64,000 nucleotides of DNA. It comes from Desulfatiglandales bacterium (GTDB lineage: Bacteria > Desulfobacterota > DSM-4660 > Desulfatiglandales > Desulfatiglandaceae). The notes beneath the pieces were generated by a model that had not been told where the DNA came from, did not search any database, and worked only from the letters and a program-made list of their open reading frames with translations. Shown in pieces: positions 20,931 through 53,135 of this stretch; position 1 is the first letter of the stretch; the number at the start of each line of letters is the position of its first letter. The stretch lies in contig OY759599.1 in NCBI GenBank assembly GCA_963662465.1, positions 64,001-128,000 on the forward strand, given 5' to 3'. The translations under genes were made by a program, and so were the position numbers.

Positions 20931-21806
20931 ATGCTGGATTTTACGATCAAAGCATCCGAACATTTATTGAAAGCCCTGAAAGATCAGGGCTATTGTTTTT
21001 TAATTTTTCGGGAATTTGTTCAGGCTTCAGAAGAGAAAATGATCACTTTGAGGCACGATGTTGATCGCAAACCAAAGAATTCACTTGAAATTGCTCGGCT
21101 TGAAAAAAGTGTCGGCATAAGAGCCAGTTATTATTTCCGGGCTGTGCCTGAGAGCTATGATGAAGATATTATCAGAGAAGTAGAGGAAATGGGACATGAG
21201 ATCGGATATCATTATGAAACCATGGACACTTGTAGAGGCGATATTGCCAAAGCCTATGACGAGTTTTGTCGCAACCTGGAGAAATTTCGAAAAGTAGCCT
21301 CAATTGATACGATCTGCATGCATGGCAGTCCACTCTCAAAATGGGATAATCGTGATGTTTGGAAGAAATATGATTACAAAAAATTGGGCATCAAAGCTGA
21401 ACCTTTCCTTGATTTGGATTTTGATGAAGTGTTTTATCTGACGGATACGGGCAGGCGGTGGGACGGGGATCGGGTTTCGGTGAGGGATAAGGTTGGTGGG
21501 CAGAGGACAGAGGACGGAGGACTGAGGACAGAGGTCAGACGACAGATGACGGAAAACAGATCCCAGGTCTCAGGAATTGGGCATAAAGAACAGCCATTTC
21601 AGAATCTTCGGTTCCATTCCACATTTGATATTATAGAGGCGGCGGAAAAGGGGTTGTTGCCGGATAAAATGATGATTAATACACATCCGCAAAGGTGGAC
21701 TGATAACCCGGTGGCGTGGACGAAAGAGTTGGTTTGGCAGAATGTGAAGAATGTTGTGAAACGTATTGTTGTTCGTAGATTACGATCCGCAGATTACGCA
21801 GATTGA
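20931..21806 (+). CDS. Polysaccharide deacetylase-like protein with a repeat-derived insert
   Basis: LRHDVD, HEIGYHYE, MHGSPLS, YLTDTGRRW, NTHPQRW. Confidence 0.75.
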   Translation: MLDFTIKASEHLLKALKDQGYCFLIFREFVQASEEKMITLRHDVDRKPKNSLEIARLEKSVGIRASYYFRAVPESYDEDIIREVEEMGHEIGYHYETMDTCRGDIAKAYDEFCRNLEKFRKVASIDTICMHGSPLSKWDNRDVWKKYDYKKLGIKAEPFLDLDFDEVFYLTDTGRRWDGDRVSVRDKVGGQRTEDGGLRTEVRRQMTENRSQVSGIGHKEQPFQNLRFHSTFDIIEAAEKGLLPDKMMINTHPQRWTDNPVAWTKELVWQNVKNVVKRIVVRRLRSADYAD

Positions 21807-21879
21807 CGCAGATTGGGGTTCTCGCGCAAAGACGCAGAGGCGCAAGGGCTAGAAGATCAGAAGGTCAGGGGTTTCTGGG

Positions 21880-22278
21880 ATGCAAATTGATTTTCATCAT
21901 ACTGTAACATATGTGGTAGCCAGGTTGGCGGGTTTTGGGCACAGAGAGGCTGAGGTCGTCTCTTACTGCGCCCAGTATGTGGACGATGCGACGAACACTG
22001 GCGAGATCATTTTTGAGAATGGCGCCATGTATGGCCGCATCTGTTCAGCGCACAAGGGTTTGGACTACCGGCACTTTGATGCTCTGGCCAGTCGCAGGGT
22101 GTGGGTGCCGTTTCATTTTCTGCCGGCAAATGGTGGTAAGAAGGCGGGGGAAAATCCGTATGGGACCTTCATTGATAAGTTGGTGTGTGGACCAGACAGT
22201 CATGTGCTGAGAGATATGGTGCGAATGTGCATTGAAAAGCGGGACGCTCTGTTTGGCTTGCATCGGCTGGGGATTTAA
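21880..22278 (+). pseudogene. DUF6765-like protein, probably truncated at the satellite
   Basis: MQIDFHH, AQYVDDA, WVPFHFLP; stops 10 bp before the array. Confidence 0.6.
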
Positions 22279-22287
22279 ATACAGTGA

Positions 22288-24975
22288 TGAGTTTTGGGTT
22301 TTGGGTTTTGAGTTAAAGGAAACGTCCTGATTATGGTTGATAGGAAGATCTTTAAAGGCAGTTTTGGGTTATGGGTTAGGGAACAGCAGTTTTGGGTTTT
22401 GGGTTTTGAGTTTTGAGTTAAAGGAAACGTCCTGATTATGGGTGATAGGAAGATCTTTAAAGGCAGTTTTGAGTTTTGGGTTAGGGAACAGCAGTTTTGG
22501 GTTTTGAGTTTTGGGTTTTGAGTTAAAGGAAACGTCCTGATTATGGGTGATAGGAAGATCTTTAAAGACAGTTTTGGGTTATGGGTTAGGGAACAGCAGT
22601 TTTGGGTTTTGGGTTTTGGGTTTTGAGTTAAAGGAAACGTCCTGATTATGGGTGATAGGAAGATCTTTAAAGGCAGTTTTGAGTTTTGGGTTAGGGAACA
22701 GCAGTTTTGGGTTTTGAGTTTTGGGTTTTGAGTTAAAGGAAACGTCCTGATTATGGGTGATAGGAAGATCTTTAAAGACAGTTTTGGGTTACGGGTTAGG
22801 GAACTGCAGTTTTGAGTTTTGAGTTTTGGGTTTTGAGTTAAAGGAAACGTCCTGATTATGGGTTATGGGAAGATCTTTAAAGGCAGTTTTGGGTTTTGGG
22901 TTAGGGAACAGCAGTTTTGGGTTTTGAGTTTTGAGTTTTGAGTTAAAGGAAACGTCCTGATTATGGGTGATAGGAAGATCTTTAAAGACAGTTTTGGGTT
23001 ATGGGTTAGGGAACTGCAGTTTTGAGTTTTGAGTTTTGGGTTTTGAGTTAAAGGAAACGTCCTGATTATGGGTTATGGGAAGATCTTTAAAGGCAGTTTT
23101 GGGTTTTGGGTTAGGGAACAGCAGTTTTGAGTTTTGGGTTTTGGGTTTTGAGTTAAAGGAAACGTCCTGATTATGGGTTATGGGAAGATCTTTAAAGGCA
23201 GTTTTGGGTTTTGGGTTAGGGAACAGCAGTTTTGGGTTTTGAGTTTTGAGTTTTGAGTTAAAGGAAACGTCCTGATTATGGGTGATAGGAAGATCTTTAA
23301 AGACAGTTTTGGGTTATGGGTTAGGGAACTGCAGTTTTGAGTTTTGAGTTTTGGGTTTTGAGTTAAAGGAAACGTCCTGATTATGGGTGATGGGAAGATC
23401 TTTAAAGACAGTTTTGGGTTATGGGTTAGGGAACAGCAGTTTTGGGTTTTGAGTTTTGGGTTTTGAGTTAAAGGAAACGTCCTGATTATGGTTGATAGGA
23501 AGATCTTTAAAGACAGTTTTGGGTTATGGGTTAGGGAACTGCAGTTTTGGGTTTTGAGTGTTGGGTTTTGAGTTAAAGGAAACGTCCTGATTATGGGTGA
23601 TGGGAAGATCTTTAAAGACAGTTTTGGGTTATGGGTTAGGGAACAGCAGTTTTGGGTTTTGAGTTTTGAGTTTTGAGTTAAAGGAAACGTCCTGATTATG
23701 GTTGATAGGAAGATCTTTAAAGGCAGTTTTGGGTTTTGGGTTAGGGAACAGCAGTTTTGAGTTTTGGGTTTTGAGTTAAAGGAAACGTCCTGATTATGGG
23801 TGATAGGAAGATCTTTAAAGACAGTTTTGGGTTATGGGTTAGGGAACAGCAGTTTTGGGTTTTGAGTTTTGAGTTTTGAGTTAAAGGAAACGTCCTGATT
23901 ATGGGTGATGGGAAGATCTTTAAAGACAGTTTTGGGTTATGGGTTAGGGAACAGCAGTTTTGGGTTTTGAGTTTTGGGTTTTGAGTTAAAGGAAACGTCC
24001 TGATTATGGGTGATAGGGAGATCTTTAAAGGCAGTTTTGGGTTATGGGTTAGGGAACAGCAGTTTTGGGTTTTGAGTTTTGGGTTATGAGTTAAAGGAAA
24101 CGTCCTGATTATGGGTGATGGGAAGATCTTTAAAGACAGTTTTGGGTTATGGGTTAGGGAACAGCAGTTTTGGGTTTTGAGTTTTGAGTTTTGAGTTAAA
24201 GGAAACGTCCTGATTATGGGCGATGGGAAGATCTTTAAAGACAGTTTTGGGTTATGGGTTAGGGAACAGCAGTTTTGGGTTTTGAGTTTTGGGTTTTGAG
24301 TTAAAGGAAACGTCCTGATTATGGGTGATGGGAAGATCTTTAAAGACAGTTTTGGGTTATGGGTTAGGGAACTGCAGTTTTGGGTTTTGGGTTTTGGGTT
24401 TTGAGTTAAAGGAAACGTCCTGATTATGGGTGATGGGAAGATCTTTAAAGACAGTTTTGGGTTATGGGTTAGGGAACAGCAGTTTTGGGTTTTGAGTTTT
24501 GAGTTTTGAGTTAAAGGAAACGTCCTGATTATGGGTGATGGGAAGATCTTTAAAGACAGTTTTGGGTTATGGGTTAGGGAACAGCAGTTTTGGGTTTTGA
24601 GTTTTGAGTTAAAGGAAACGTCCTGATTATGGTTGATAGGAAGATCTTTAAAGACAGTTTTGGGTTTTGGGTTAGGGAACTGCAGTTTTGGGTTTTGAGT
24701 TTTGAGTTTTGAGTTAAAGGAAACGTCCTGATTATGGGTGATGGGAAGATCTTTAAAGACAGTTTTGGGTTATGGGTTAGGGAACAGCAGTTTTGGGTTT
24801 TGAGTTTTGGGTTTTGAGTTAAAGGAAACGTCCTGATTATGGGTGATGGGAAGATCTTTAAAGACAGTTTTGGGTTATGGGTTAGGGAACTGCAGTTTTG
24901 GGTTTTGGGTTTTGGGTTTTGAGTTAAAGGAAACGTCCTGATTATGGGTGATGGGAAGATCTTTAAAGACAGTTT
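22288..24975 (+). repeat. Tandem satellite: 26 copies of a 105-bp unit (two units are 98 bp)
   Basis: Core AAGGAAACGTCCTGATTATG recurs at 22316, 22421, 22526 ... 24927; unit contains TTTTG(G/A)G heptamer blocks. Confidence 0.97.
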
Positions 24976-25041
24976 CCCCCTGTGTCAGGATAGATGTCGC
25001 CTCAATTGAAAAATCAAAACCGGGGGCATTGAGGTGATTTT

Positions 25042-25536
25042 ATGGTATACCCGATTAAAATGAAAGAGGCAGTGATAAAAAAAGTGCAGATGGGTGGAAA
25101 ACCTCATTATGAAATAGCAAGTGAAGCCGGCATCGCTCAGTCCACCTTGACTTACTGGCTCAAAAACCACAAAAAAGACGGGAACAAGAATTTGACTGAA
25201 AAAGAAAAACGCCCCCAAGACTGGACTGTAGAGCAACGACTGAATGCTTTAATGGAAACAGGTGCCATGCCGGAAGGGGAACGTGCTTCCTGGTGCCGTA
25301 AAAGAGGGGTCTTTTCTCACCACCTTGAACAGTGGAAAAAAGACATCCTCTCCTTGTCAACCCCAAACAACTCCGCCCTTAAATTCAAAGGGACTGCCCG
25401 GTTAAAGAAGGAGAATGCCGCTCTGAAAAAAGAGTTGAACCGTAAGGATAAAGCACTTGCCGAGACGGCAGCCTTGCTGGTTCTTAAAAAAAAGCGGACT
25501 TTATCTGGGGGGATCCCAGGGACGATTGATCAGTGA
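25042..25536 (+). CDS. IS3 OrfA (HTH plus coiled coil)
   Basis: IAQSTLTYW HTH; ELNRKDKALAETAALLVLKKK. Confidence 0.88.
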   Translation: MVYPIKMKEAVIKKVQMGGKPHYEIASEAGIAQSTLTYWLKNHKKDGNKNLTEKEKRPQDWTVEQRLNALMETGAMPEGERASWCRKRGVFSHHLEQWKKDILSLSTPNNSALKFKGTARLKKENAALKKELNRKDKALAETAALLVLKKKRTLSGGIPGTIDQ

Positions 25537-26623
25537 AGGCGACAAAAAGGAAGCCTTGGCTCTGATCCAGGAGGCATGCAAGGCCGGGGCACGTAAGCAT
25601 CTTGCAGCAGAGCTTCTGGGGCTGCCGCTTCGGACGGTACAACGCTGGGAAACGCATGGCATTAATGATCACCGTAAAGGCTCCCGGGCTGTGCCCGGCA
25701 ACAAGATATCCCAAAAAGAGAGGGAAAAAATCATGGATGTGCTGACATCATTGGAATTTGGGGATTTTAACCCCCATCAAATTGTTCCCAAACTTGCGGA
25801 TCAAGGTATCTACCTGGGGTCGGAAGCCACCATGTACAGGATTTTGAGAAAGCAGAAAATGAACAAACACCGCCTCTCAAGCCAGGCAGGGGCCCGAAAA
25901 CGCCCGGAGGCGTACATTGCCACAGGCCCCAATCAGGTATGGTCCTGGGATATAACATATTTGCCGGCCCGGGTAAAAGGTCGTTTTTTCTACCTTTATA
26001 TGATTATGGATGTCTACAGCCGTAAAGCAGTGGGATACCAGGTCTATGATTGTGAATCCGGAGAACTTGCAGCAGCTCTGATTACAGACACCTGTAATCA
26101 GGAAAAAATACAAGAGGATCAGTTAGTTCTGCACTCTGATAACGGCGGGCCAATGAAAGCCTTTACCATGCTTGCAAAACTGGAATCCCTGGGGGTAGTG
26201 CCGTCATTCAGCCGCCCCAGGATCAGCAATGACAACCCCTATTCTGAGTCGTTGTTCCGAACCATGAAATATCGTCCGGAATACCCTGAGCATCCCTTTG
26301 AAGACCTGAAGAATGCTCGGGAGTGGACAGAAAAATTCTCCCAATGGTATAACAATGAACACCTTCATAGCGGTATTTGCTTTGTAACTCCTACAGACCG
26401 ACATGAGCGAAAAGATATTGAAATCCTTGAAAAACGTCATCATTTCTACCAAGAGGCAAAGAGTTGTCATCCGGAACGCTGGACTGGGGCAACAAGAAAC
26501 TGGGAGCACATTGGTGAAGTGGCGTTAAACAGGAGGAACAAACCAGGAAAAAACGACCGAAGACGGGAAAAAGGCGGCACTACCCCAGCGCCCGTACCTG
26601 TGTTATTAATTTCGTTATCCTGA
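25457..26623 (+). CDS. IS3 OrfB (rve DDE domain)
   Basis: WSWDITY, LHSDNG, SNDNPYSESLF. Confidence 0.92.
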   Translation: MPRRQPCWFLKKSGLYLGGSQGRLISEGDKKEALALIQEACKAGARKHLAAELLGLPLRTVQRWETHGINDHRKGSRAVPGNKISQKEREKIMDVLTSLEFGDFNPHQIVPKLADQGIYLGSEATMYRILRKQKMNKHRLSSQAGARKRPEAYIATGPNQVWSWDITYLPARVKGRFFYLYMIMDVYSRKAVGYQVYDCESGELAAALITDTCNQEKIQEDQLVLHSDNGGPMKAFTMLAKLESLGVVPSFSRPRISNDNPYSESLFRTMKYRPEYPEHPFEDLKNAREWTEKFSQWYNNEHLHSGICFVTPTDRHERKDIEILEKRHHFYQEAKSCHPERWTGATRNWEHIGEVALNRRNKPGKNDRRREKGGTTPAPVPVLLISLS

Positions 26624-26816
26624 CGGTTTTTACCGAATTGAGGTGACCGGAAAGGGAGGTTTAATGAGCCTTATCGCATGCCTAAACTCATTGTGGTTAT
26701 TTGCTAAACTATTGATATTGTATCAAATAGTTTCTCTTTTTTCCCAAACTGCCCTATAGGTTTACAGATTAACAGGTGACAATTGATGGTTACCTCAATC
26801 CGCAAAATTCCGTCAG
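26620..26816. mobile_element. MITE-like insert in the IS3 right end, about 197 bp
   Basis: Inverted termini CTGACGGTTTTTACCGAATTGAGGTGACC / GGTTACCTCAATCCGCAAAATTCCGTCAG (23/29). Confidence 0.6.
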
Positions 26817-27018
26817 AATATCGTGGCGATGAACACCTGCAAACCAACAGAGTTGATTTTGCCTATGGAGGAGCAAAAAATTCTCATGGCCGAGAATGGG
26901 CCTCTAAAAAAGCTCGTCGGAGGCCATGAGAATTTTTTACGGGTATCGCGATAATTTTTACAAGTTTAGGTGACAACTTGCTTGACATCTACCGGTTTTG
27001 GGTTATGGGTTTTGAGTT

Positions 27019-27414
27019 TTGGGTGAAAACCAGAAGAAAATTGACGAAAGGACTTTTGATTTTGCTTTGTTGGTGGTTGATGCTTACAGGTTTTTGCTGC
27101 ACAAAAAAGAGTTTGTCTTATCCAAGCAATTTTTGAGAGCAGGCACTTCAATAGGTGCCAATGTCACAGAGGCACAGGCGGCTCAGAGTAGAAATGACTT
27201 TATTTCAAAGATGTCCATTGCTTCAAAAGAGGCAAGGGAGACGGATTATTGGGTTCGGCTTCTCAGGAAATCCGGGTATTTTAAAGGGTATGAAAAATTG
27301 GGTATTTTGGAGAAAGATATTTCAAGTATCATGAGGATCTTGACGAGTATCGTAAAAACCACTCGGGAAAATCACCCAAAACCCAACACTCAAAACCCAA
27401 AACCGCTAAAATGA
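27019..27414 (+). CDS. Four-helix-bundle protein (23S rRNA IVP-like family)
   Basis: LSKQFLRAGTSIGANVTEA, FISKMSIASKEARETDYW; both ends lie in heptamer repeats. Confidence 0.92.
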   Translation: MGENQKKIDERTFDFALLVVDAYRFLLHKKEFVLSKQFLRAGTSIGANVTEAQAAQSRNDFISKMSIASKEARETDYWVRLLRKSGYFKGYEKLGILEKDISSIMRILTSIVKTTRENHPKPNTQNPKPLK

Positions 27415-27507: not shown

Positions 27508-27861
27508 AGAAAATCTCCTTTAATGGCACCAGTATAACAACGCAATTTCTCAGAAATCAAGCAGAAATCTACGATTACCAAAAAAAACAGCAGAGGATCA
27601 AAAAAAGTTCTTCAGAAGGAAAATCGGGGTCTGGCTTTCCTTGTTATCGTTTTGGGTGAAAAGGAGATCGATGAATAGGCTTTTGATTTTTCCTTTTTCT
27701 CACCACAAGACACAGAGTTCACTGAGAAAAAATGGAGAGGCGCTTTGATCGCTTCGTCTCTTAGCCTGTTTGCTGCCGATTGCTTGAGGGGGTTGGGAGG
27801 TTGTGGAATGGGGGACGCTGTCCCCGAATTTTGTTTTTCGCGCAAAGACGCAGAGGCGCAG

Positions 27862-27920
27862 GGACCTGGGGGACGTCCATTTGTAATTCAGTAACTCGAT
27901 ATTTTGGCACCCCGGTTAAA
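27862..27920 (+). repeat. 59-bp dispersed direct repeat, copy 1 of 4
   Basis: GGACCTGGGGGACGTCCATTTGTAATTCAGTAACTCGATATTTTGGCACCCCGGTTAAA; also at 29969-30027, 31164-31199 (partial) and 31205-31263. Confidence 0.92.
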
Positions 27921-28023
27921 CCCCAGTGGGGGAAGCGCCCTTAACTTTTTAACTTTAGTTTGGGTTCTCGCGCGGAGGCGCTGAGACGCAAAGAAGAGAG
28001 GAAAAAAAGGTGAGAGGGTTAGC

Positions 28024-28245
28024 AGAGGTCGGATGTCGGAGGTCGGAGGACTGAGGTCGGAGGTCGGAGGTCGGAGGTCGGAGGTCGGAGGTCGGAGGGC
28101 GGATGTCGGATGTCGGAGGTCGGAGGTCGGAGGTCGGAGGACGGAGGACGGAGATCGGAGGACGGAGATCGGGAAAAGACAGAGGTCGGATGTCAGAGGT
28201 CGGAGGTCGGATGTCGGAGGTCGGAGGACGGAAGGCGGAGGACTG
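28024..28245 (+). repeat. Longest tract of GGAGGTC/GGAGGAC/GGATGTC heptamers
   Basis: About 30 degenerate heptamers; related tracts near 21500, 29665, 31395, 31612, 32725, 34360, 35250, 36716, 37140, 38180, 39050, 41293, 46368, 50640, 52340. Confidence 0.95.
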
Positions 28246-28481
28246 ATCGCAGGTCTCAGGAATTGGGCATAAAAACAGCCATTTCAGAATCTTCGGTTTC
28301 ATTCCACGTTTGATATTGTTGAGAAATAGGGGACGCTGGCAACTTTGTAAACTTATTCAGGGCGGTGGTCCACATACCGAAGGAATAGGCTACACTGAAG
28401 CACAAAAGGGTTTTTTGCTTGACGGCGGGGTGTTGGTACTTGGTCGTTGCCATTTGATAAGATTTTGGTTATTATCGGATT

Positions 28482-29481
28482 ATGAGTAATGAAATCGGAT
28501 CAGCGCACAATAATCTGTTCCAGAACATCCTTGGCCGTGAAGATATGGCCAGGGATTTTGTCCGGTATTATATGCCGGCGGAAATCGTCGGCGATCTGGA
28601 CCTGGATACTTTGGAAGTGGCCTCTGAATCGTATATCAGTGATGATCTCAAAGAGAGCCTTTCCGATATCGTACTCAGCCTCCAGCTCAAGGATGGGGAC
28701 CCGGCTGAAATATACATTCTTATGGAACACAAAAGCGGGTTGCACAGAGGCACGCGGCTGCAACTTTTGAATTATATGAACGCCAAATGGCATGAGCTGG
28801 ACAAGGCCGGAGAGTTTCGGGGATCACTGGCTGTTATCATTCCCGTGGTTTTCTACCATGGCAAGAAAAAATGGAGATACAGCCTGGAATTCTCGGACCA
28901 GTTCAATCTGCCTGGAGAGCATTATAGGAGATATGTCCCCAAATTCGAACATATTTTGCATGAAGTTCCGGAGATCAATAAGCGCAAGATCAAATCCACC
29001 ATCGCTCTTGAACATTCATGTGGTGCTGGAGTGTATTTTCTACCCGGAGAAACGGGAGCGAATTTATGAATCCCTTGAGTTGTTGTTTCAGGGGTTAAAC
29101 ACGGATAAGGCCGGCGAGCTGTTTTATGTGTTTGTCAAATACCTGCTTTCCGCCACCGATGTAAACCCCAGAGAGGTGGAAAAGAGGGTAAAACATCTTC
29201 CAAAAGGAGAAGAGACCGTGCGTACTACAGCAGAAGTTTTGAGGAAAGAAGGCTATGACAGTGGAGTGGTTTTCGGCGAACAACATGGCAAGCTTGAAAC
29301 CGCTCAGGAAATGCTCATAGACGTCGCCGGTGAACGATATGGACTTTTGCCTTCCGTACTGGAAGCGAAAATCAAATCCATTAAGTCCATCACGACTTTG
29401 AAAAATTTGGCAAGACAAGTCGTTAAGCTGGACAGGATGGAGGGTTTTGAAAGGCTCGTCAACAAGGCTGTGGATCATTGA
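28482..29481 (+). pseudogene. Rpn/YhgA-like PD-(D/E)XK recombination-promoting nuclease, frameshifted
   Basis: HNNLF, LDLDTL, SDIV, IYILMEHKS, IPVVFYHG; second half continues in another frame near 29010. Confidence 0.85.
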
Positions 29482-30329
29482 TGCCAACTGAACCTCCAAA
29501 CCCCACCCAAAACATAGTACCCCTTCCTTTCCCTTTACCTATTTTAGCCCAAAGCCATTTTGGGCAAGCTGTTCCAATTATCTACTCACCTTGGCCTTGA
29601 GCTTACTCGTAATGGAATAGGACGTTGTTCCGTAATTCCGTTTTTTGCCCACGAATCACACTGAGGACAGAGGACGGAGGACGGAGGTCGGAGGGCGGCG
29701 TGGACGTAGGGAACGTAGTCAACTTGTAAACTTACTGATTGAGAAAAACCATTTTCAGGTGATGGGTGATTGTGTTGCGTGAAAACCCGCGTCTCCCGCG
29801 TGGCCCCTGCTTAGGGACGAGACAAGCAGGCTGGGGCTTGGGTACAGGACGAAAATCCTTTACACAAAATCGATTAATTGTTTATGACCCAGACCTCGTT
29901 ATTTGATCTAACAAGCACCGTTTTTTGGACACCATCCTCGTCATATCAGCTGTATGGAGGCAAATTGTGGACCTGGGGGACGTCCATTTGTAATTCAGTA
30001 ACTCGATATTTTGGCACCCCGGTTAAATGCGTTCCACTCGTCACTGGCGTGAATTTAACGGGGCAGGCGCATTTCACAGATGGCACAGATTAATTGTTTC
30101 GCGCCCAGTGAAACAACTGCAACGAAGGTTTCACAAGGCAGGCAGAGGCGCAAAGATAGAAGCTGAAAACTCAAAGGGGAAAGGACAGGGGGCAAAACTG
30201 CGGGATGGATGGATAAGTAGGGTTTTCACAGTAAGGCGGCAAAGCCGCAGTTTTGGGTTTTGGGTTTTCAGTCATTAAACTTCTTGTTTTTTGGGAAAGA
30301 AGACCAGGTACTATAGCAGCGATTATGGC

Positions 30330-30357
30330 TTGACTTTACACCATAAAGGTGTAAAAT
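30330..30357 (+). promoter_or_regulatory. Sigma70-type promoter overlapping a palindromic operator for mqsRA
   Basis: TTGACT-16-TAAAAT; palindrome TTTACACC-ATAAA-GGTGTAAA at 30335-30355. Confidence 0.75.
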
Positions 30358-30366
30358 GGATAAAGA

Positions 30367-30684
30367 ATGACAGAAAAACGAAAACCAACATACGATATAG
30401 AAGCTTTCAAAACAGCTTTTGCCAATATGGAGAGACTTTCCGCCACGGGCACAGCGCTACGAAGCGCCGCCGCATTGGGATTCGGACGCGCGGAGATCGT
30501 GGCGACGATCCAGTCAATGCAGCGAGGGCACTTTTACAAGTCTATGACCGCTTATGCCAATCATCGACTTTGGCAGGACGTCTACCACGTCCCTTCACCG
30601 GCCGGCGAGTTGTATGTTAAGTTCACCGCCGATACCGTTACAGAGTTTTTGTTGCTATCGTTTAAGGAGAAAGACGATGACTAA
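30367..30684 (+). CDS. mqsR: MqsR-family mRNA interferase toxin
   Basis: EKRKPTYD, FYKSMT, WQDVYH, LLSFKEK. Confidence 0.92.
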   Translation: MTEKRKPTYDIEAFKTAFANMERLSATGTALRSAAALGFGRAEIVATIQSMQRGHFYKSMTAYANHRLWQDVYHVPSPAGELYVKFTADTVTEFLLLSFKEKDDD

Positions 30685-31910: not shown

Positions 31911-31939
31911 TTGACTGCCACCGATTGAATGCATAGACT
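31911..31939 (+). promoter_or_regulatory. Putative sigma70 promoter of the Phd/VapC pair
   Basis: TTGACT-17-TAGACT. Confidence 0.6.
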
Positions 31940-40724: not shown

Positions 40725-40728
40725 GGCG

Positions 40729-44098: not shown

Positions 44099-44103
44099 AT
44101 TAT

Positions 44104-44180
44104 CTCGCGCAGAGCCGCAGAGGCGCAGAGAGGGAAAGGATTTTTTGTTTTTTCTTTGCGACTTAGCGTCTTTGCGCGAG
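44104..44180. repeat. Hairpin element CTCGCGCA...TGCGCGAG built of 9-mers
   Basis: Full copies at 41678-41752, 41897-41965, 44104-44180, 44563-44638, 45042-45122; single arms near 21821, 27838, 27967, 32688, 46329, 50600, 60117. Confidence 0.92.
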
Positions 44181-44231
44181 GTGATTTTTGGTTTCTTTGC
44201 GGGAGAGTGAGGGGGCGGGCGGTGGTCTGTA

Positions 44232-44546
44232 ATGAAAAATCGATCTGACAGTATTCTCGCGGTCGTTCATGAGACCGCAAAAGGTTTGCGCGATGCGGGT
44301 ATTATGAATGAAATAACCATGCGTGAATTTGATACGCTATGTCTGTTTCCCGTTAAGACATATCAACCACGGGAAATTAAAGAGATACGGTTGCGCCATC
44401 GGGTTAGCCAGGCGGTATTCGCTGCCTACCTGAATGTAAGCAAGACTTCTGTGGCAAGCTGGGAGTCGGGCGGGAAAAAACCCGGCCCAGCGGCAGCCAA
44501 GCTCCTTAGCTTGGTGGATCGAAAAGGCATTGACGCAGTTGCCTGA
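44232..44546 (+). CDS. Orphan HigA-like HTH antitoxin
   Basis: VSQAVFA, SWESGGKKPG; no toxin gene upstream. Confidence 0.88.
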   Translation: MKNRSDSILAVVHETAKGLRDAGIMNEITMREFDTLCLFPVKTYQPREIKEIRLRHRVSQAVFAAYLNVSKTSVASWESGGKKPGPAAAKLLSLVDRKGIDAVA

Positions 44547-44652
44547 TCTAAAAAAGAAGTAACTCGCGCAGAGACGCCAAGACGCAAAGAAGAGAAGTTT
44601 TTATTGTTTTTCTCTGCGCCTCAGCGTCTCTGCGCGAGAATATAGGTTTTTT

Positions 44653-45036
44653 ATGACGGAAAATGAGATTGGGACGATTGTGGTTGATGCGGCTGTGAAG
44701 GTTCATATGGCGCTGGGTCCGGGTCTTTTGGAAAGCGTCTACGAGATTGTTCTCGCTCATGAGCTTTCAAAGAGGGGACTGCATGTGGAAAGGCAGATTC
44801 CCATTCCCATACAATATGATCGGATCAAGTTTGATGAAGGTTTTAGGGCAGATATCATTGTAGAAAAAAAAGTAGTGCTTGAACTGAAATCTGTTGAGAA
44901 GATTACGCCTGCGCATAAGAAACAGATTCAAACATATCTTCGGCTTACGGGTTGCAGGCTGGGGTATCTGTTGAATTTCGGTGCGGCTTTGATGAAACAG
45001 GGTATTACCAGGGCTGTCAATAATCTTGAAGAATAA
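44653..45036 (+). CDS. GxxExxY protein (PD-(D/E)XK-like)
   Basis: GPGLLESVYE, FRADIIVE, ELKSV, GYLLNFG. Confidence 0.95.
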   Translation: MTENEIGTIVVDAAVKVHMALGPGLLESVYEIVLAHELSKRGLHVERQIPIPIQYDRIKFDEGFRADIIVEKKVVLELKSVEKITPAHKKQIQTYLRLTGCRLGYLLNFGAALMKQGITRAVNNLEE

Positions 45037-45104
45037 ATTATCTCGCGCAGAGACGCAGAGGCGCAGAGAGAAAAAGGGCTTTTTTTGTTTTTTTTCTTAG
45101 CGCC

Positions 45105-45536
45105 TTGGCGTCTTTGCGCGAGAATAGAGAGACTTTGTGCGAGAAATCTAAAAACTGGCCCGGGCGGGTGTTGGTGGCGTCTTATGTATTGATTGCCATT
45201 GCCGCGGTTGTCCCATACGGTTCCAAAGTTCAAAGTGTTTCAGTGGTATCCATCGGGCTTGACAAGATTGTCCACTTTATCGGTTTTGCGTGCATGGCGG
45301 TGTTTTCCCTGGGTGCCGGAAGAGGCGGTCCCTTTTGGAAGAAGATTTTTCTTGTTTTTATGGTGCTGGTTTTCGGTGTCTTAATTGAATTTGTCCAATA
45401 TTATTTGTCTTATCGAACCTTCAACCCGGTGGATATCGCCGCCAATCTTTTTGGGATGCTTTTTGGGATTTTGGTGTGGTATCTTTTCCTGGCGCGTGTT
45501 TTGAGAAGACGTGCGGAGAAGGGCCTTCCGGGTTAG
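45105..45536 (+). CDS. VanZ-family membrane protein
   Basis: DKIVHF, IEFVQ, RTF..DIAAN; start uncertain and lies in a hairpin arm. Confidence 0.8.
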   Translation: MASLRENRETLCEKSKNWPGRVLVASYVLIAIAAVVPYGSKVQSVSVVSIGLDKIVHFIGFACMAVFSLGAGRGGPFWKKIFLVFMVLVFGVLIEFVQYYLSYRTFNPVDIAANLFGMLFGILVWYLFLARVLRRRAEKGLPG

Positions 45537-45569
45537 ATGACTACGGTTCTTGTTTAAGTAAATAAAATG

Positions 45570-45596
45570 GCCGGCCTTTGGGTCGGCTTTTTTTTT
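45570..45596 (+). terminator. Intrinsic terminator
   Basis: GCCGGCC-TTTG-GGTCGGC stem-loop followed by T9. Confidence 0.75.
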
Positions 45597-45656
45597 GATC
45601 CACAGATTACGATCCACAGATTACGCAGATTACGCAGATTACAGACCTCAATATTC

Positions 45657-45730
45657 TGACAGGATTAACAGGATTAACAAGATAAAAGAACATGGATGTA
45701 AGTATCCTGTAAATCCTGTAAATCCTGTCA
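45657..45730. repeat. Gene-less element with inverted 9-mer arms
   Basis: TGACAGGATTAACAGGATTAACAAGAT / ATCCTGTAAATCCTGTAAATCCTGTCA (24/27); left arms also near 39854 and 41198. Confidence 0.85.
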
Positions 45731-45768
45731 AAAAACAATGGGGAAGCAGGTAGCGGGGAGGGAGCATT

Positions 45769-48441
45769 ATGATAAGGATTTTTTGGTTGGGATTGTTGTG
45801 TTTGGTTTTACCGAATGTGGCAACGGGTGAGGTGGTAAAAGGGATTTACGGGGTGCCGTCTATTGCGGAACGGGACCCCTCGAGTTATGTGGGAGATATG
45901 GAAAAGGCCGGGGTGAATGCCGTTTTTGTGAAGCCGGATCGGGATACGGTGAAATGGTTCAAGGACAGAGGGTTTCAGGTGTTTGTTTCCATTGATGCTT
46001 ATGGTGGGTCGCGGGCATGGAAACAATTTCCGGATTCCCGTCCGGTGTTGGCGGATGGGTCTCTTTTGGGGGAAAACCCGGAATATGCCTGTCATGGTGG
46101 CGCATGCCCGAGCCATGAGGGGTGGCAGCGGGAGAGGCTTTCATATATCGCTGGATTGATCAAGGATTTCGAGGGGCAGGGTTTGTTCATTGATGGGATC
46201 TGGCTGGATTATATTCGGTATCCGGGTCGGTGGAGCGTTTTGGATCCGAAGATTCCGGATACCTGTTACTGCGAGAGATGTTTGGGTAAATTTTCAAAAG
46301 AGATGGGGATTGAGTTTCCCATAGGGTTCTCGCGCAGAGACGCAAAGACGCAGAGAAGGGAAGAAGGGCAGAGGTCGGATGTCAGCGGTTGGGCCGTGGA
46401 GGACGAAAAAGATGGGATGATTGGATGGGTGGCAGGGAGCAACACAAAGGAGGTGTCTCGGTGGATCAAAGAGAACTGTCCTTATGAGTGGATGGTGTGG
46501 AAGAAACGGCAGATTAACGGTTTTGTGGAAAAAGTGAGGGGGGTGTTGAATGAGAAATCGCCGGATCGCCGACCACTTTTAGGAATTTTCCTGGTTCCCT
46601 GGACAAAAGGGGAAAGGGGGAACGGGGTTTCCTACAGCTTTGCTCAGGATGGGTTTGAACTGGCGAAATATGCGGATGTGATTTCGCCCATGGTGTATCA
46701 CAAGAAGGTGGGGCGGTCGGAAGCGTGGGTGGGGGTTATGACCCGGTATTATGAGGAGCGGGTTTCGTGCGAGGTTTGGCCGATTGTTCAGGCCATGGAT
46801 TGCACGGTTGAGGAATTTGCGGCGGTTATGCGGTATGCTGGTGAGGGAGGGGCGGATGGCGTTCTGGGGTTTCCGTTTAGGGCTGTGGAGAAGGCGGGGT
46901 TGTGGGAGGGGTTTCGGGGATTTAACCGGGCGGTGAATTTGCTCAAATCCACAGATTACGTGGATTACAGTGATAAGAAGGTAAGAGGATTAGAAGGTGA
47001 GAAAGTTAGTGAAGAAAGTGGGGTGATTGAGATTCGGCCCGAGTATGGGGAATGTGGGGAGTGGGTGGTTCCGTTGCGGGGTTGTGAGGCGGGGGTCGTC
47101 TATGAGTTTCGGGGGGAATTTTGGCAGCGGGTTTGGGAGAATGGGGCTTATCCGATGGTGTTGCTTTGGGGGAGGGAGTTTTTATTGAATACACACTGGA
47201 AGAGCAAGGTGTTTCAACCGCTGCGGGTGTATGTGAGGTGTCCGGGTGAGGTGAGGGATCAGACGTTTCGGTTTAAGAACTGCAACCCCGAGAAAGAAAT
47301 ACGGATGCGTAATCCTGAGTTGAGGCGGTTTTATGGGTTTGCTCCGGAACCGGGCGTGCCTTTGAAGCGGGATTTTTTTGATGAACATTTTTTCCCCATC
47401 GGGGTTTATGGGGCCAACCTGAAAAACCTGGAGGAGATTAAAAAGCTGGCCATCAATACGGTGGTGCTGGGTGGGACGGGAAAAAAGCTCAGGGAACAGG
47501 TGGAAAAGTGTCATGAGGTGGGGTTGCGGTATGTGCTGTCGACGCCCCATGATCCGGATCGGTTGCCGGTGTATCTGGATCAGATTTCGGGGTATGTGAG
47601 GCCTTACGATATGGCGTTTTATGTGAATGATGAACCGGGGATTCATTCGTTTCCGACGGGGAAGGCGGTGGATGTGAACCGGTTGATCAAGGAACGGTTT
47701 CCGGATTGTGCCACCTGTATGGCCATTGTGCGGCCGCAGGTGTGTGGGGAGTATAAGGATGGGGCCGATTTCTTCATGCTGGATCAGTATCCGGTACCGT
47801 TTATGCCATTTGGGTGGCTTTCCGATAGTATGGATTATTGTGCGGCGTGTTTGGGATCCGCAGATTACGCAGATTACGCGGATTACACTGAAAAGAAGGT
47901 TAAAGGTTTAGCAAGGGGTCGGCTGGCGGCGGTGATTCAGGCATTTGGGGGAGAAACGCGTTTTGATCATCCGAGGTTGCCGACTTGGCAGGAGATGGAT
48001 TGTCTGGCGTTTTTGTCGGTGGTGCATGGGTCGCGGGGGATTTTCTTTTATACGTATTCGTGGATCGGGAAGACGGAGGAGGGTCGGGAACGGCTGGGTC
48101 GGGTGGTGGGCCGGTTGAACCAGGTGTACCCGTGGCTGGTGGTGGAGAATTCAGGGGAGAAGGTTGGGGTGGAGATGCTTTCGGGCAATCGGTTTGATCC
48201 GAAGGGACGGGCGGCGGTGCAGTGTTGTCTTAAGCGGAAAGGGGATGAATTGATGGTGTTTGCGGTGAATACTATTGGAACTGGGGTGGAGTGTTTGCTA
48301 GAGGCTGAGAAGGTTAGAGGTTTAGAAGGTAAGAAGGTTAGTGAGGTGTTTTCGGGGGAGGATTATGTGGTTCGGGATGGGAAGATTCGGGTTCGGCTGG
48401 GGCCTTATGGGGTCAAGGCTTTTATCCACAGATTACACTGA
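45769..48441 (+). CDS. Secreted protein with two glycoside-hydrolase-like (TIM-barrel) regions
   Basis: Signal peptide; DGIWLDYIRYP, CYCERC, DVISPMVYH; second region YVNDEP, DQYPVP. Confidence 0.7.
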   Translation: MIRIFWLGLLCLVLPNVATGEVVKGIYGVPSIAERDPSSYVGDMEKAGVNAVFVKPDRDTVKWFKDRGFQVFVSIDAYGGSRAWKQFPDSRPVLADGSLLGENPEYACHGGACPSHEGWQRERLSYIAGLIKDFEGQGLFIDGIWLDYIRYPGRWSVLDPKIPDTCYCERCLGKFSKEMGIEFPIGFSRRDAKTQRREEGQRSDVSGWAVEDEKDGMIGWVAGSNTKEVSRWIKENCPYEWMVWKKRQINGFVEKVRGVLNEKSPDRRPLLGIFLVPWTKGERGNGVSYSFAQDGFELAKYADVISPMVYHKKVGRSEAWVGVMTRYYEERVSCEVWPIVQAMDCTVEEFAAVMRYAGEGGADGVLGFPFRAVEKAGLWEGFRGFNRAVNLLKSTDYVDYSDKKVRGLEGEKVSEESGVIEIRPEYGECGEWVVPLRGCEAGVVYEFRGEFWQRVWENGAYPMVLLWGREFLLNTHWKSKVFQPLRVYVRCPGEVRDQTFRFKNCNPEKEIRMRNPELRRFYGFAPEPGVPLKRDFFDEHFFPIGVYGANLKNLEEIKKLAINTVVLGGTGKKLREQVEKCHEVGLRYVLSTPHDPDRLPVYLDQISGYVRPYDMAFYVNDEPGIHSFPTGKAVDVNRLIKERFPDCATCMAIVRPQVCGEYKDGADFFMLDQYPVPFMPFGWLSDSMDYCAACLGSADYADYADYTEKKVKGLARGRLAAVIQAFGGETRFDHPRLPTWQEMDCLAFLSVVHGSRGIFFYTYSWIGKTEEGRERLGRVVGRLNQVYPWLVVENSGEKVGVEMLSGNRFDPKGRAAVQCCLKRKGDELMVFAVNTIGTGVECLLEAEKVRGLEGKKVSEVFSGEDYVVRDGKIRVRLGPYGVKAFIHRLH

Positions 48442-48455
48442 TTACGGGGATTAGG

Positions 48456-48827
48456 ATGGAAGATGAGAGGTCTTATAAGGTTATTGGGGCTGCTATGGAG
48501 GTGCATAAGGGGTTAGGTTGTGGTTTTCTTGAAGCAGTGTACCAGGAGGCACTTGAGAGGGAGTTTAGAATTCAGGGAATTCCTTATATTTCGCAGTATG
48601 AGATTCAAATTGTTTACAAAGGGGTCGTACTGAACAAAACGTATATCGCGGATTTTGTTTGTTATGAAAAAATAATTGTGGAAATTAAAGCTTTATCAAA
48701 AATGTCTGGTATTGAGGCTGCGCAGGTCATAAACTACCTGAAAGCGTCAAATTTTAAGATAGGTCTTCTTCTCAATTTTGGAGCCAAATCCCTGGAATAT
48801 AAACGCTTCATCCATAACAATCAGTAA
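48456..48827 (+). CDS. GxxExxY protein, second paralog
   Basis: GCGFLEAVYQEAL, ADFVC, EIKA, GLLLNFG. Confidence 0.95.
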   Translation: MEDERSYKVIGAAMEVHKGLGCGFLEAVYQEALEREFRIQGIPYISQYEIQIVYKGVVLNKTYIADFVCYEKIIVEIKALSKMSGIEAAQVINYLKASNFKIGLLLNFGAKSLEYKRFIHNNQ

Positions 48828-48875
48828 AATCCGTGTAATCTGCGTAATCTGCGGATCCTAATCAGTGGGTAAAAA

Positions 48876-51119
48876 ATGGAAAAAGCAGCATACATCATAT
48901 ACCTAACCATCCTCCTCCTCAGCATCTTCATGTTCGGGGCGGTGCATACCTACATGTACACCCTGATGACCCTTGGGGTGTTGGCGGCGACTGTTTTCCT
49001 TCTTTGGAAGAATGTTCGGAAGGACTACAAAAGCAGGGAATACCGGTTTCGGGTGCCCCGGAACAGTTTGCATGTGGGGTTTGCGGTGCTGCTGGGATTC
49101 CTGGTTTTACAGATGGTTCCCCTGCCTTCTTTTGTGGTGGATTTTCTGTCGCCGGAAGCATCGGTGGTGGCTGAAAAATCGTTTTCGGCGGTGGAATTGG
49201 TGAATAGCCCTGAGGCGGAAAAGCCGTGGTTTTTCCTTGCGGCCTATGGGTATCCGGTTCGCATGTCGATGGTTCGGTTTGTGGTTTACGGGTTGTTTTT
49301 CTTTGGTTTCCTTCAGACCCTTCAGTCACGCAGGCGAATTAATGTGGCGGTTTCGTTTCTGTTGGCCATGGGGTGTTTTGAGGCCCTGTATGGGCTCATG
49401 GAGACCTATTCCGGGTCGCACAAGGTGTTGTGGTACACCATGAATTATGCCAAAGAACGGGTGAAAGGCACTTTTATCAATGGCAATCATTTTGCCGCTT
49501 ACATGGCCATGGGCGTGGTTCTGGCGGCGGCCTTTGCGGGGGCCATTGCGCCGGAAAAACGTGTCAGCCGAAATAATTCCAGACGGAAGCCAAGTCTGAG
49601 TGCAAGGGTCGCCTCTTTTCTGGAAGGGGAAGAGGCTTTGTTCAAGCGGGTTCTGGTGGGGTTTTCCGGGGTGCTGATGGGGATCGGGTTGATCTTTTCA
49701 GCCTCCCGGGGCGCTATTTTGAGCTGGGCCGGGGCTATGTTTCTGATGGGGTTGCTGCTGGTTTTGCGGAAACAATATCGACGAAAAGGGGTTTTGCTTA
49801 TCGGTATTTTTCTGTTGATTTGCGGTTATGCGGTTCAAATCGGTGTGGAGTATCCTCTGGAGCGGTTTATGAAGATGGAATCGGGGATGGAAAGCCGGTC
49901 GCGCTATGCCGCCAGGACCATGGACCTTTTTGAGGATTTTCAAGTGGCCGGCGTGGGGGTCGGGAATTTCCAATATGCGTTTCCCAAATACCAGTCGGAG
50001 AAAGATAAGAAAAAGTACTATATTTTTGCGCATAATGACTGGGCCCAATATATGGCGGAGGCGGGTATTTTAGGGCTGGGCTTGTTGCTGGGTGGGGTCG
50101 GGTATTACCTTTTCAAGACCCTCAAGCTGTGGGCCAGGCGGAAGGATGCCTATGCGGTGTGCCTGGGGGTGGCGCCGGTTGTGGCACTTGTTTATATCGG
50201 CCTGCATTCCTATGTGGAATTTACGCTGCATACTCCGGCAAACGTGCTCATTCTGTTGTCCATCATGGCCATCGGGCATGCGGCCCTTCATTTGGAACGG
50301 CATCATCGGCGGGATGTGATGAGTTACCGGTATTACAATCTTCCTTTGAAATATAAGGGCGGGGTGGTGTTGCTGTTGATTCTGGGACTGATCGGGTGGA
50401 CGGGGTATTGGAGTATTCGGCATTTCATGGGGGAGGTGTATTGCAATACGGTGCCTAACAGCACCTTGAACCGGGATAAGCGGCCGCCGGTGGGCGAGGT
50501 GGTGCGGGCGGTTGAGTGGGATTCGGGGAATGCTGCTTACTGGTTTAAGCTTGGATCCGCAGATTACGCAGATTACACAGATGGAAAAGGAAAAGATGTC
50601 TCGCGCAAAGGCGCAAAGGCGCAAAGAGGGGAAAGGCAGGGGTCAGAGGTCAGAAGTCTGAAGTCAGAGGACAGAGGTCTGAAGTCGGTAACAGAAATCG
50701 GCGAAAATCTGTGTAATCTGCGGATAATGGCTTTGGAGAGATCTGTGGAACTGAATCCTTTTGACGCGCAGTACCATCTTCGGTTGGGGTGGGAATATGC
50801 GCATTTGTGGCAGGAAAAGGATTATCATGTGAGATGGCTGCCGGCGGCGGATATCAGCATGGATCGGGCGGCTTATTTTGCGGGGGTGAAGAACCCGCAC
50901 CTGCATCAAGAACTGGGGAATTACTGGACCATGCGGAGCAGGTCGGTGATGCCCAATGATCCATTGCACCATGAGGCGTGGGCGAAGGCTTGTTGGCATT
51001 ACCACAAAGCGCAAAGTCTTGAGACAGGAGGGGCGTTGAAGCGGATGAAGAAGGAAATACGGGGGTATGTTTGGAATTTTTATCCGGATGAAGACTATAT
51101 CGCGCAAGTAATCAATTAG
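48876..51119 (+). CDS. O-antigen ligase-like membrane protein with TPR-like C-terminus
   Basis: GTFINGNHFA, SASRGA, GVGVGNF, AHNDW. Confidence 0.88.
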   Translation: MEKAAYIIYLTILLLSIFMFGAVHTYMYTLMTLGVLAATVFLLWKNVRKDYKSREYRFRVPRNSLHVGFAVLLGFLVLQMVPLPSFVVDFLSPEASVVAEKSFSAVELVNSPEAEKPWFFLAAYGYPVRMSMVRFVVYGLFFFGFLQTLQSRRRINVAVSFLLAMGCFEALYGLMETYSGSHKVLWYTMNYAKERVKGTFINGNHFAAYMAMGVVLAAAFAGAIAPEKRVSRNNSRRKPSLSARVASFLEGEEALFKRVLVGFSGVLMGIGLIFSASRGAILSWAGAMFLMGLLLVLRKQYRRKGVLLIGIFLLICGYAVQIGVEYPLERFMKMESGMESRSRYAARTMDLFEDFQVAGVGVGNFQYAFPKYQSEKDKKKYYIFAHNDWAQYMAEAGILGLGLLLGGVGYYLFKTLKLWARRKDAYAVCLGVAPVVALVYIGLHSYVEFTLHTPANVLILLSIMAIGHAALHLERHHRRDVMSYRYYNLPLKYKGGVVLLLILGLIGWTGYWSIRHFMGEVYCNTVPNSTLNRDKRPPVGEVVRAVEWDSGNAAYWFKLGSADYADYTDGKGKDVSRKGAKAQRGERQGSEVRSLKSEDRGLKSVTEIGENLCNLRIMALERSVELNPFDAQYHLRLGWEYAHLWQEKDYHVRWLPAADISMDRAAYFAGVKNPHLHQELGNYWTMRSRSVMPNDPLHHEAWAKACWHYHKAQSLETGGALKRMKKEIRGYVWNFYPDEDYIAQVIN

Positions 51120-52270: not shown

Positions 52271-52434
52271 TTGTTTCGCGTAAGGCGCTGATAAGGAGGA
52301 AATAGAAGATAGGAAAGGGAAATAGGAAAGGATAGAAGGTCAGAGATCCACCCCAGACCGGTGGTCCGGGGTCAGGGGTCGGGAATCGGGGGGAGGACTA
52401 GGGGTCAGTAGCCGGTGGTCAGGGAGGGAAGGGG

Positions 52435-52524
52435 ATGGTTGCTAAATCGGCGAAAGATTTGCGGGTTTATAAGAAGGCATATGCGTTGGCTATGGCGATA
52501 TTCCATTCCGAGCAATACCACTGA
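52435..52524 (+). pseudogene. 5' stub of a second four-helix-bundle subfamily gene
   Basis: MVAKSAKDLRVYKKAYALAMAIF; preceded by GGTCAGG-type heptamers. Confidence 0.7.
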
Positions 52525-52526
52525 AG

Positions 52527-52772
52527 TCAGGCGTCAGCCTTCTCTGAAAGCCACTCATTTATGAGTGCTTCTTCTGGTTTTCTTAACATTTTTGCCTTGT
52601 TTGTGATTTGGGCATACAAGTCCTTATTGATCCCAACGTATCTTTTTTTCTTCAATGAAAATTTAATTTCACTAACCTCCTTGACATCGTGGAATTCCCC
52701 AAAGTCGTGTTCATCCCAGAAGTCAGAGGCGTCATAAATGGATATGTCGTCAAAATTCCTATTTTTTCCCAT
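52527..52772 (-). CDS. BrnA/CopG-like antitoxin
   Basis: ASDFWDEHDF, EALINEWLSEK. Confidence 0.8.
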   Translation of the reverse strand: MGKNRNFDDISIYDASDFWDEHDFGEFHDVKEVSEIKFSLKKKRYVGINKDLYAQITNKAKMLRKPEEALINEWLSEKADA

Positions 52773-53047
52773 AACGTCCCCTTTCGCTGCTATTCATACC
52801 CCTTGCGGTCACTATTAGGGCCTTGTTTCCGAGTTTTTTGATAAAGAAAACGGATAAATAACGACCTGATTCGGTTCTGCCGAGGGCATTGTACAAATCC
52901 TCTCCTTCTACTTTGCCCTTTTCCTTCCGGAATATTCTGCAACCGCCGGACAAGATGTCCTTCACCTCAGATGGCAAAAATATTATGCTTCCATGCAAGC
53001 TTCTCGACTATTCTTTCCAGCCGGATTATATCTTCTATAATAAACAA
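52759..53047 (-). pseudogene. BrnT-like toxin, frameshifted
   Basis: IVEKLAWKHNI|LPSEV..ALGRTESGRYL..IVTARGM; one extra base in a homopolymer at about 52976-52980. Confidence 0.8.
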
Positions 53048-53135
53048 ATTTTAACTCATCTTATCAAAACAAGTAAGAAATTAGGTAGAAAAGTCTTCAG
53101 ATGATATAGGCAGAATTTGTGGCTCAGGTCAAGAC

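Follow-up and report, generated by a model that had tools for sequence, protein, structure and literature searches.

Mirror-polarised repeat arms around a variable surface-glycan core hint at directional splicing-in of foreign DNA in a Desulfatiglandales bacterium

Surface-glycan loci are swapped between strains, and the way in which the ends of the swapped DNA arise can rarely be seen. We analyzed a window of 64,000 nt (G000:C1:64001-128000; positions without prefix refer to this window) from a Desulfatiglandales genome of ~8 Mb, here called G000, and focused on the region 21500-53130, in which the backbone genes of a polysaccharide operon are separated by small gene modules and by short repeats that form the arms of palindromes. 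Judged by sequence comparison, this region is the downstream flank of a surface-glycan core that differs between related loci. Two independent signals flip about this variable block, the orientation of arms from three unrelated element families and the base composition of silent sites, which together make up the strongest local skew switch of the genome. Such a mirror-polarised flank architecture around a glycan core is apparently undescribed and hints at directional splicing-in of foreign DNA. The flanks may be scars of a repeated replacement of the core by horizontal transfer, with donor DNA ending at the palindromes; the mechanism is one that we infer, and we give this reading a probability of about one half. 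Comparisons were made with a second version of the locus at the contig end (version B), with a second G000 locus at 7.09-7.125 Mb, and with the genomes G010 (same genus as G000) and G109 (another genus of the same family).

Nearly all arms in the window are left arms on the plus strand (61 versus 0 for the GGAGGTC family), and orphan arms upstream of the core are right arms, with the backbone genes on the same strand and in the same replichore. Counting left arms on the sense and antisense strand, we observed 3/12 upstream and 55/11 downstream of the core at the window locus. The corresponding values are 5/31 and 27/1 for version B, 6/57 and 42/8 for the second G000 locus, 2/15 and 20/8 for G010, and 9/70 and 53/8 for G109. 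A whole-genome count of one end of TIRYT-type transposases, which avoids hand-drawn zones and uses a motif chosen from upstream sequence, gave the same picture: all 6 copies in G000 and all 12 in G109 lie upstream of the core or switch point and read outward. On either side, the arm nearer the core is retained. Downstream junctions consist of a 5' gene piece followed by a left arm, and upstream junctions of a right arm followed by a 3' gene piece, the latter at three different cut points of one gene. Chromosomal replication bias was rejected as the cause of the polarity, since both flanks lie in one replichore.

The second signal is the G+T content at fourfold-degenerate sites, which in G000 rises from 0.42 upstream to 0.51 in the core and 0.71 downstream, both flanks sharing one replichore and one transcription direction. 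Among 2040 leading-strand open reading frames (ORFs; mean silent G+T 0.524, standard deviation 0.055) the GH-like gene of the downstream flank has the highest value (0.81) and an upstream Gfo gene the lowest (0.33). The switch at the window locus (0.249) is the largest of 1617 genome positions, the next being 0.123 and the standard deviation 0.032. Paralogs in G010 served as a control and differ in the same direction between upstream and downstream copies, with 0.40 versus 0.60 for Gfo (proteins 85% identical) and 0.34 versus 0.64 for DegT. Deamination of C to T was considered as the cause of the skew and is not demonstrated, C/G differences predominating at sites near saturation. Extreme silent skew was also seen at G000:C1:7348000-7390000, 7520000-7556000 and 3595000-3611000, regions with few such tracts.

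The full core (G000:C1:58750-84900) is the part of the locus that varies. By blastn, none of the three cores compared (window locus, version B, G010) is homologous to another, with the exception of five short pieces (150-419 bp) that resemble insertion sequence (IS) remnants, whereas their flanks are still homologous; the GC content of the cores is 41% compared to 47-49% in the flanks. The cores of G010 and G109 consist of glycan genes, and G109 shares with the window locus only one upstream gene and the cassette genes. Family scans identified four of the backbone genes that had been proposed from the sequence alone (wecB, the sugar transferase, VanZ and the O-antigen-ligase-like gene), while the deacetylase-like gene gave a weak and the GH-like gene a marginal match. 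The window locus is carried as cargo by an IS-rich island at the tmRNA gene. The competence genes ComEC and DprA are encoded in the genome.

The arms stem from three families, namely four-helix-bundle cassettes, GxxExxY cassettes and TIRYT-type transposase ends, and each gene subfamily has its own arm unit. Four-helix-bundle genes lie within inverted 7-mer arms, and GxxExxY genes within or between 8-10-mer arms. The sequence-only reading had bracketed these two gene families by 7-mers and by roughly 9-mer arms, respectively, which applies to the four-helix-bundle gene and to the GxxExxY gene at 48456. The GxxExxY gene at 44653, however, sits between two complete 8-mer hairpins, and the unit length of CGCAGAGA is corrected to an 8-mer. 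Both GxxExxY genes belong to TIGR04256/PF13366 and keep a PD-(D/E)XK-type motif in their sequence; a search of solved structures gave no match for GxxExxY, a family that exceeds the cut-off in 84 of the 123 genomes of the class. The gene at 48456-48827 is 97% identical to G010, its neighbours 86-90%. The four-helix-bundle protein matched only the structures 2RLD and 2GSC (five chains each), and its family is a presumed structural relative of Avd. Nothing in these sequence data provided evidence that either small protein is a recombinase. The TIRYT-type ends (GGGGAC/GGGGTC motif) fit the consensus GGGG[AT][CG]A[CG] published for the termini of TIRYT / TnpA-REP subclass 2.1 HUH transposases (Quentin et al. 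2018, PMC6006769). Within the window we found no Y1 transposase gene with paired inverted TIRYT ends; elsewhere in G000 there are intact Y1 transposase genes that have paired ends of this type and a DnaA-like C-terminal extension.

Several single insertions touch these families. Version B alone carries an IS91-like element (by eye; G000:C1:8150016-8151577) inside the TIRYT-type motif that lies at window position 27899. At the second locus a group II intron-like reverse transcriptase element (by eye; G000:C1:7116200-7118150) lies within the right arm of a four-helix-bundle cassette, and at G000:C1:7091400-7092500 the middle of a beta-CASP-like gene is replaced by a GxxExxY cassette with both junctions at arm ends; there the host bases flanking the arms are complementary over ~7 bp, as if a stem-loop had its loop exchanged.

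That the repeats are real, as the sequence-only reading held, is borne out by their number, which is far above dinucleotide-shuffle chance. Six motif families gave 29, 16, 3, 14, 15 and 4 matches in 21500-53130 without the long array, compared to a maximum of 0-1 matches in 50 dinucleotide shuffles, and merging resulted in 66 tracts. Genome-wide, tracts of period 7-10 reach 33-59 per 50 kb in three zones of G000 (50-150 kb, 7.0-7.15 Mb and 8.10-8.16 Mb; 3.9% of the genome) against a mean of ~8 (1328 tracts in 164 bins of 50 kb). Excluding exact duplicates of window genes at the contig end and merging two split matches, we found that these zones contain 7 of the 9 four-helix-bundle loci, 10 of the 12 GxxExxY loci and, among 99 toxin genes from four families, 24. 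The first two of these counts support the sequence-only interpretation. Of the 75 toxin genes outside the zones, a single one has a tract within 200 bp (random expectation 1.5%).

Tracts are also placed in frame within intact backbone genes. The 111-bp insert of the GH-like gene is lacking in G010, and close to the end of this gene the window has an 8-mer arm where G010 has a 9-mer arm; the nested insert of the ligase-like gene reads 9-mer left, 8-mer left, 7-mer left and 9-mer right arm. The in-frame tracts, the TIRYT-type ends, the one-strand bias of the tracts and a 105-bp array were absent from the sequence-only reading. This array (22291-24975, 105 bp x 26), whose core is present at only four places in the genome, and a smaller one (37163-37382, 52 bp x 4) are of higher order, combining 7-mer arms with a constant spacer. 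A further palindromic family of the CCCCG...GTGAAAC...GTTTCAC type occurs within arms or gene scraps (35370-35418, 30084-30140, 31340-31385) and in G010 too. An Rfam scan of 20000-56000 returned nine matches, all far under the gathering scores, of which eight are microRNA look-alikes at 8-mer hairpins; a known RNA family was rejected on these scores as the identity of the repeats.

Comparison with related loci reveals both gain and loss. The gaps between the deacetylase, wecB and sugar transferase genes amount to 13.8 and 5.2 kb in the window, but only to 120-180 bp, bearing repeats, in G010. The second G000 locus contains shared blocks of 95-98% identity in a different order. Version B differs from window positions 27899-37959 at 47 columns, nearly all of which correspond to entire 7-mer units; the other differences are IS insertions and the length of the array. 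As a whole, the contig-end island (G000:C1:8082092-8161625, compared to 29146-101959) begins at the tmRNA 3' end and has another glycan core and other IS insertions; it represents either tandem islands or two strains in one assembly. We collected 31 truncation points of genes, hand-picked from locus comparisons and partly of shared ancestry, of which 15 are no more than 20 bp away from a tract or TIRYT end (9.6% of random positions); for tracts alone the number is 11 (7.5%). Modules were gained relative to G010, as anticipated from the sequence, with breakpoints at the repeats in about half of the cases. With 15 of the 31 cuts at repeats and 16 away from them, the repeats are favoured, not obligatory, junctions.

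Between the backbone genes we counted ten complete type II toxin-antitoxin pairs and three partial ones. The complete pairs, five per strand, agree with the modules in both orientations noted earlier; among them, one antitoxin is without a family match and one toxin is under the cut-off. Scraps of backbone and cassette genes are 81-97% identical to the full copies, and two of the three deacetylase fragments begin at the internal 7-mer tract of that gene. In relatives, the promoter and the stop codon mark the ends of close homologs of the toxin-antitoxin modules, whose flanks are for the most part unrelated; on this ground and by the tract proximity of 1 in 75, toxin-antitoxin genes as obligate repeat-bounded cassettes were rejected. 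From their sequences, the modules look like cargo. All features are listed in Table 1.

Table 1. Features in and beside the downstream flank (window coordinates)
Feature	Position	Strand	Remarks
Right-hand part of glycan core	1..20929	+	glycosyltransferases, EpsG, Fnl-type genes, WecG; nearly tract-free (family scans)
Deacetylase-like backbone gene	20901..21806	+	in-frame 7-mer left-arm tract 21501-21550; 9-mer arm at stop
DUF6765 5' fragment	21880..22278	+	model positions 1-131 of 325; cut 3 bp before 105-bp array
105-bp higher-order array	22291..24975	+	TTTTG(A/G)G left arm; 26 cores (~26 units) here, 11 in version B
IS3-family element	24976..26994	+	inserted in arm; absent from version B
Four-helix-bundle gene, intact	26995..27414 (gene 27019-27414)	+	TIGR02436/PF05635; inverted 7-mer arms pairing as stem
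TIRYT-type terminal repeats, left ends only	27626..41070	+	at 27626, 27812, 27870, 28330, 29710, 29977, 31172, 31213, 31777, 33620, 39825, 41050
Deacetylase gene fragments (three)	28245-28323, 31515-31606, 35297-35531	+	86-97% identity to full copies
Rpn/YhgA module, frameshifted	28337..29661	+	bounded by TIRYT end and 7-mer tract; 96% copy at second locus
MqsR/MqsA pair	30367-31144	+	family scans
Phd/PIN pair	31973-32604	+	family scans
MazF/MazE pair	32964-33542	-	family scans
Gp49/HTH pair	33758-34336	-	family scans
Four-helix-bundle 5' scrap	34496-34574	+	sequence comparison
HI1419/HI1420 pair	34589-35180	-	family scans
wecB backbone gene	35602..36819	+	9-mer left arm, in frame, near start
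65-aa orphan gene module	36744-37146	-	98% copy at second locus
52-bp array of 7-mer arms, then PemK pair (37455-38090)	within 36744..38090	-	
RelE/HTH pairs	38323-39028, 40362-41046	+	family scans
Sugar-transferase 5' scrap	39102-39518	+	joined to 7-mer arm
Four-helix-bundle scrap	39656-39816	+	joined to TIRYT end
RHH gene with cut partner	39928-40219	-	family scans
Scraps with 8-mer hairpins	41386..41969	+	sugar transferase 41386-41562, HTH antitoxin 41624-41724, GxxExxY 41770-41896
Sugar transferase backbone gene	42050..44098	+	family scans
8-mer hairpin, solo HTH antitoxin, 8-mer hairpin, intact GxxExxY gene (44653-45036), 8-mer hairpin	44101..45126	+	family scans
VanZ-like gene and arms	45105..45735	+	gene 45105-45536, then 9-mer left arm and complete ACAGGATT hairpin
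GH-like backbone gene	45769..48441	+	four in-frame left-arm inserts, one of 111 bp
Intact GxxExxY gene (48456-48827) in inverted 9-mer arms	48422..48864	+	family scans
O-antigen-ligase-like gene	48876..51119	+	silent G+T 0.72; nested in-frame insert 50549-50725
MazE/MazF pair	51352-51953	+	family scans
Probable four-helix-bundle 5' scrap	52435-52521		by eye; no Pfam match
BrnT/CopG pair	52527-52998	-	family scans

Downstream of the flank, minus-strand island genes follow at 53200-64000 (RadC, ArdC, DUF3150, AAA and HerA) and continue at G000:C1:128000-165000 with SIR2-HerA, Cdc6-like, relaxase, NrdD and integrase genes. The contig start (G000:C1:7000-21500) carries head and terminase genes of a lambda-like prophage, adjoining the repeated tmRNA end.

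Under the replacement reading, each replacement would be selected for its new core. Incoming DNA would be single-stranded in the flanks, on the strand reading 5' to 3' away from the core, and would be cut at or inside palindromes by the GxxExxY nuclease, an HUH transposase or a host hairpin nuclease, leaving an incoming end that finishes in the core-proximal arm. This end would then be joined to the resident flank illegitimately or via short homology between arms. Gene scraps and toxin-antitoxin pairs would be carried along and persist, and a prolonged exposure of one strand could give rise to the silent-site skew. The repeats would accordingly be preferred break-and-join points rather than sites of a dedicated cassette integrase.

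A number of observations weigh against this reading. The enzymatic steps are all putative. Of the 12 loci examined, 5 show clear polarity; they belong to three genomes of one family, and those of G000 and G010 are homologous to each other. As to generality outside the family, a prediction fixed in advance for genome G013 held only weakly (one right arm upstream, six left and two right arms downstream, no silent skew), polarity is also weak in G022, and none was seen at a second site of G109 or in G143, G142, G183 and G127, where tracts are few and not all sites are established glycan loci. Zone borders were drawn after viewing the profiles and motifs were taken from the window, so that p-values for cuts and polarity are overstated. 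The upstream bias in G109 is due to TIRYT ends, its tandem-repeat arms on that side showing none when counted alone (8/8), and a stretch within its downstream flank (G109:C1:1175000-1190000), possibly an inversion, has reversed arm polarity. The upstream Gfo genes break the rule, as their left arms lie on the sense strand. At the second G000 locus, polarity changes abruptly without a core between the flanks. To these come the 16 gene cuts away from repeats and the paralog differences, which are mostly from C upstream to G downstream (45 versus 14) at near-saturated sites.

A more specific, and less likely, form of the replacement reading is directional glycan switching, in which flank cassettes are co-opted as break-and-join points and their nucleases trim incoming DNA at the arms, each swap adding material next to the core and pushing older scraps outward on both sides. 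If true, the flanks would form a mirror-symmetric, readable record of past serotype swaps, and arm orientation together with silent skew would locate such hot spots in any genome. An unlikely alternative is outward synthesis with template switching: recombination-primed replication would leave the core in both directions, and the single-stranded nascent strand would drop off randomly and restart at a hairpin foot, so that each piece would start with a left arm and stop at no fixed point. Most downstream junctions indeed consist of an arbitrary cut followed by a left-arm start, mirrored upstream, the sign of the skew matches a replication origin, and versions A and B differ by whole tract units. 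However, the core, itself replaced, contains no origin or initiator, and the fragments, at 81-97% identity to full genes, are not copies of the local alleles.

Rather less probable is the proposal of the sequence-only reading that four-helix-bundle and GxxExxY proteins form a dedicated, integron-like system, recombining their own repeats and moving modules as cassettes. It would account for the arm sequence proper to each subfamily, the nuclease-type motif kept in both GxxExxY genes, the Rpn and orphan modules with repeats at both ends, and the cassette in the beta-CASP-like gene. Yet module boundaries are not fixed, more than half of the cuts falling off repeats, toxin-antitoxin genes elsewhere have no flanking repeats and their homologs no shared ends, and both the mirror and the silent-site skew are left unexplained; a repeat-delimited cassette unit is not supported. 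As had been stated, the 62 window ORFs scanned include neither a tyrosine nor a serine recombinase, and the window has no TIGR02249 match. Five IntI are over the cut-off in the genome, none of them in the window or within ~1.4 Mb. Our own R-box and fold scan found no attC in 21500-53130 or at the second locus, with limited sensitivity, as it picked up seven identical sites beside just one of three IntI tested. With no near IntI, no attC detected and no fixed repeat boundary, the integron reading fails, and the presence of both orientations and imprecise ends led us to reject it as well. Beside an integron integrase at G000:C1:4413960-4423745 we noted a 1609-bp unit in seven identical copies, all of which carry one and the same attC-like site. 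For a diversity-generating retroelement, no reverse transcriptase was found among the 62 window ORFs; template and variable repeats were without a separate search.

The remaining explanations are improbable to differing degrees. Rho prefers C-rich RNA, and selection along one long mRNA could tolerate C-rich sequence near the promoter and favour G-rich sequence distally, for example against Rho-dependent termination. Such a transcript gradient predicts the same order as the core mirror, the backbone genes being all on one strand, and left arms are mostly G-rich; on the other hand, the second locus shows an abrupt switch, the rule also holds for AT-rich TIRYT and ACAGGATT arms, and the mirrored junction types are unexplained. 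Slightly less credible still is a passive graveyard, in which selfish cassettes and toxin-antitoxin genes decay in a permissive island and core-ward deletions are purged, leaving proximal arms. The position in an IS-rich island at the tmRNA gene and the many truncated modules fit this view, but the left-arm-only in-frame inserts lie in intact genes, where both directions are equally constrained, and the silent-site skew is unaccounted for. An assembly artefact from mixed strains, to which a contig end repeating ~80 kb of the contig start in variant form and a contamination of 3.75% might point, is very hard to credit given that duplicated scraps are 81-97% identical rather than identical, that G010 and G109 have the same design, and that two public runs, probably of the source sample, contain 82% and 79% of sampled words of 36000-45900. 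A further 19 runs have shares under 0.2 and carry no evidential weight.

Taken together, the replacement reading offers an explanation for the crowding of 7-10-mer repeats and toxin-antitoxin genes at glycan loci, and it predicts specifically, in a form open to testing, where and on which strand two very widespread proteins, both of unknown function, should cut. A literature search, mostly outside subscription journals and without supplements, returned nothing on such cassettes in glycan loci or on polarity.

Integrons and superintegrons build up small modules rich in toxin-antitoxin pairs in tandem. The window also stacks small toxin-antitoxin-rich modules, but differs by the lack of an adjacent IntI or a detected attC, by both orientations and imprecise ends, and by backbone scraps between the modules. 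The heptamer repeats of Xanthomonas and Nostoc are described as genome-wide, with an orientation set by the adjacent ORF and an association with stable loci (Rehm et al. 2015, PMC4692102); they share with our tracts the G-rich 7-mers at gene borders and a strand preference, whereas the tracts here are confined to three zones and oriented by the glycan core. The 23S rRNA intervening sequence with an ORF (S23p / TIGR02436; PMC4990558) resembles the cassette with its S23p/PF05635 ORF inside a terminal stem; here, however, the cassette is found in an mRNA operon and mostly as 5' scraps and orphan arms, with no rRNA match in the Rfam scan of 20000-56000. For TnpA-REP, strand transfer activity is reported (PMC3333891). 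The window ends match TIRYT elements in their consensus, and intact genes with paired ends exist elsewhere in G000, but those of the window are orphan, in one orientation and without a transposase gene. GxxExxY, PF05635 near cas genes, or toxin-antitoxin islands receive passing mentions in PMC8934634, PMC3936711 and PMC3493377. In Neisseria, the gene of the small nuclease Ssn is flanked by NTS/dRS3 hairpin repeats, which cluster near variable surface genes, and the proposed target of the nuclease is single-stranded DNA entering the cell (Chenal et al. 2025, PMC11893778). Ssn is a GIY-YIG and GxxExxY a PD-(D/E)XK protein (TIGR04256/PF13366), the arms here are tandem 7-10-mers of three families together, and the system as described in PMC11893778 is without mirror polarity, silent skew or toxin-antitoxin cargo. 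In both systems the gene of a small nuclease with a single domain lies between its cognate hairpin repeats, and these are concentrated near surface genes; Ssn/NTS is the closest tested precedent for the nuclease role proposed here.

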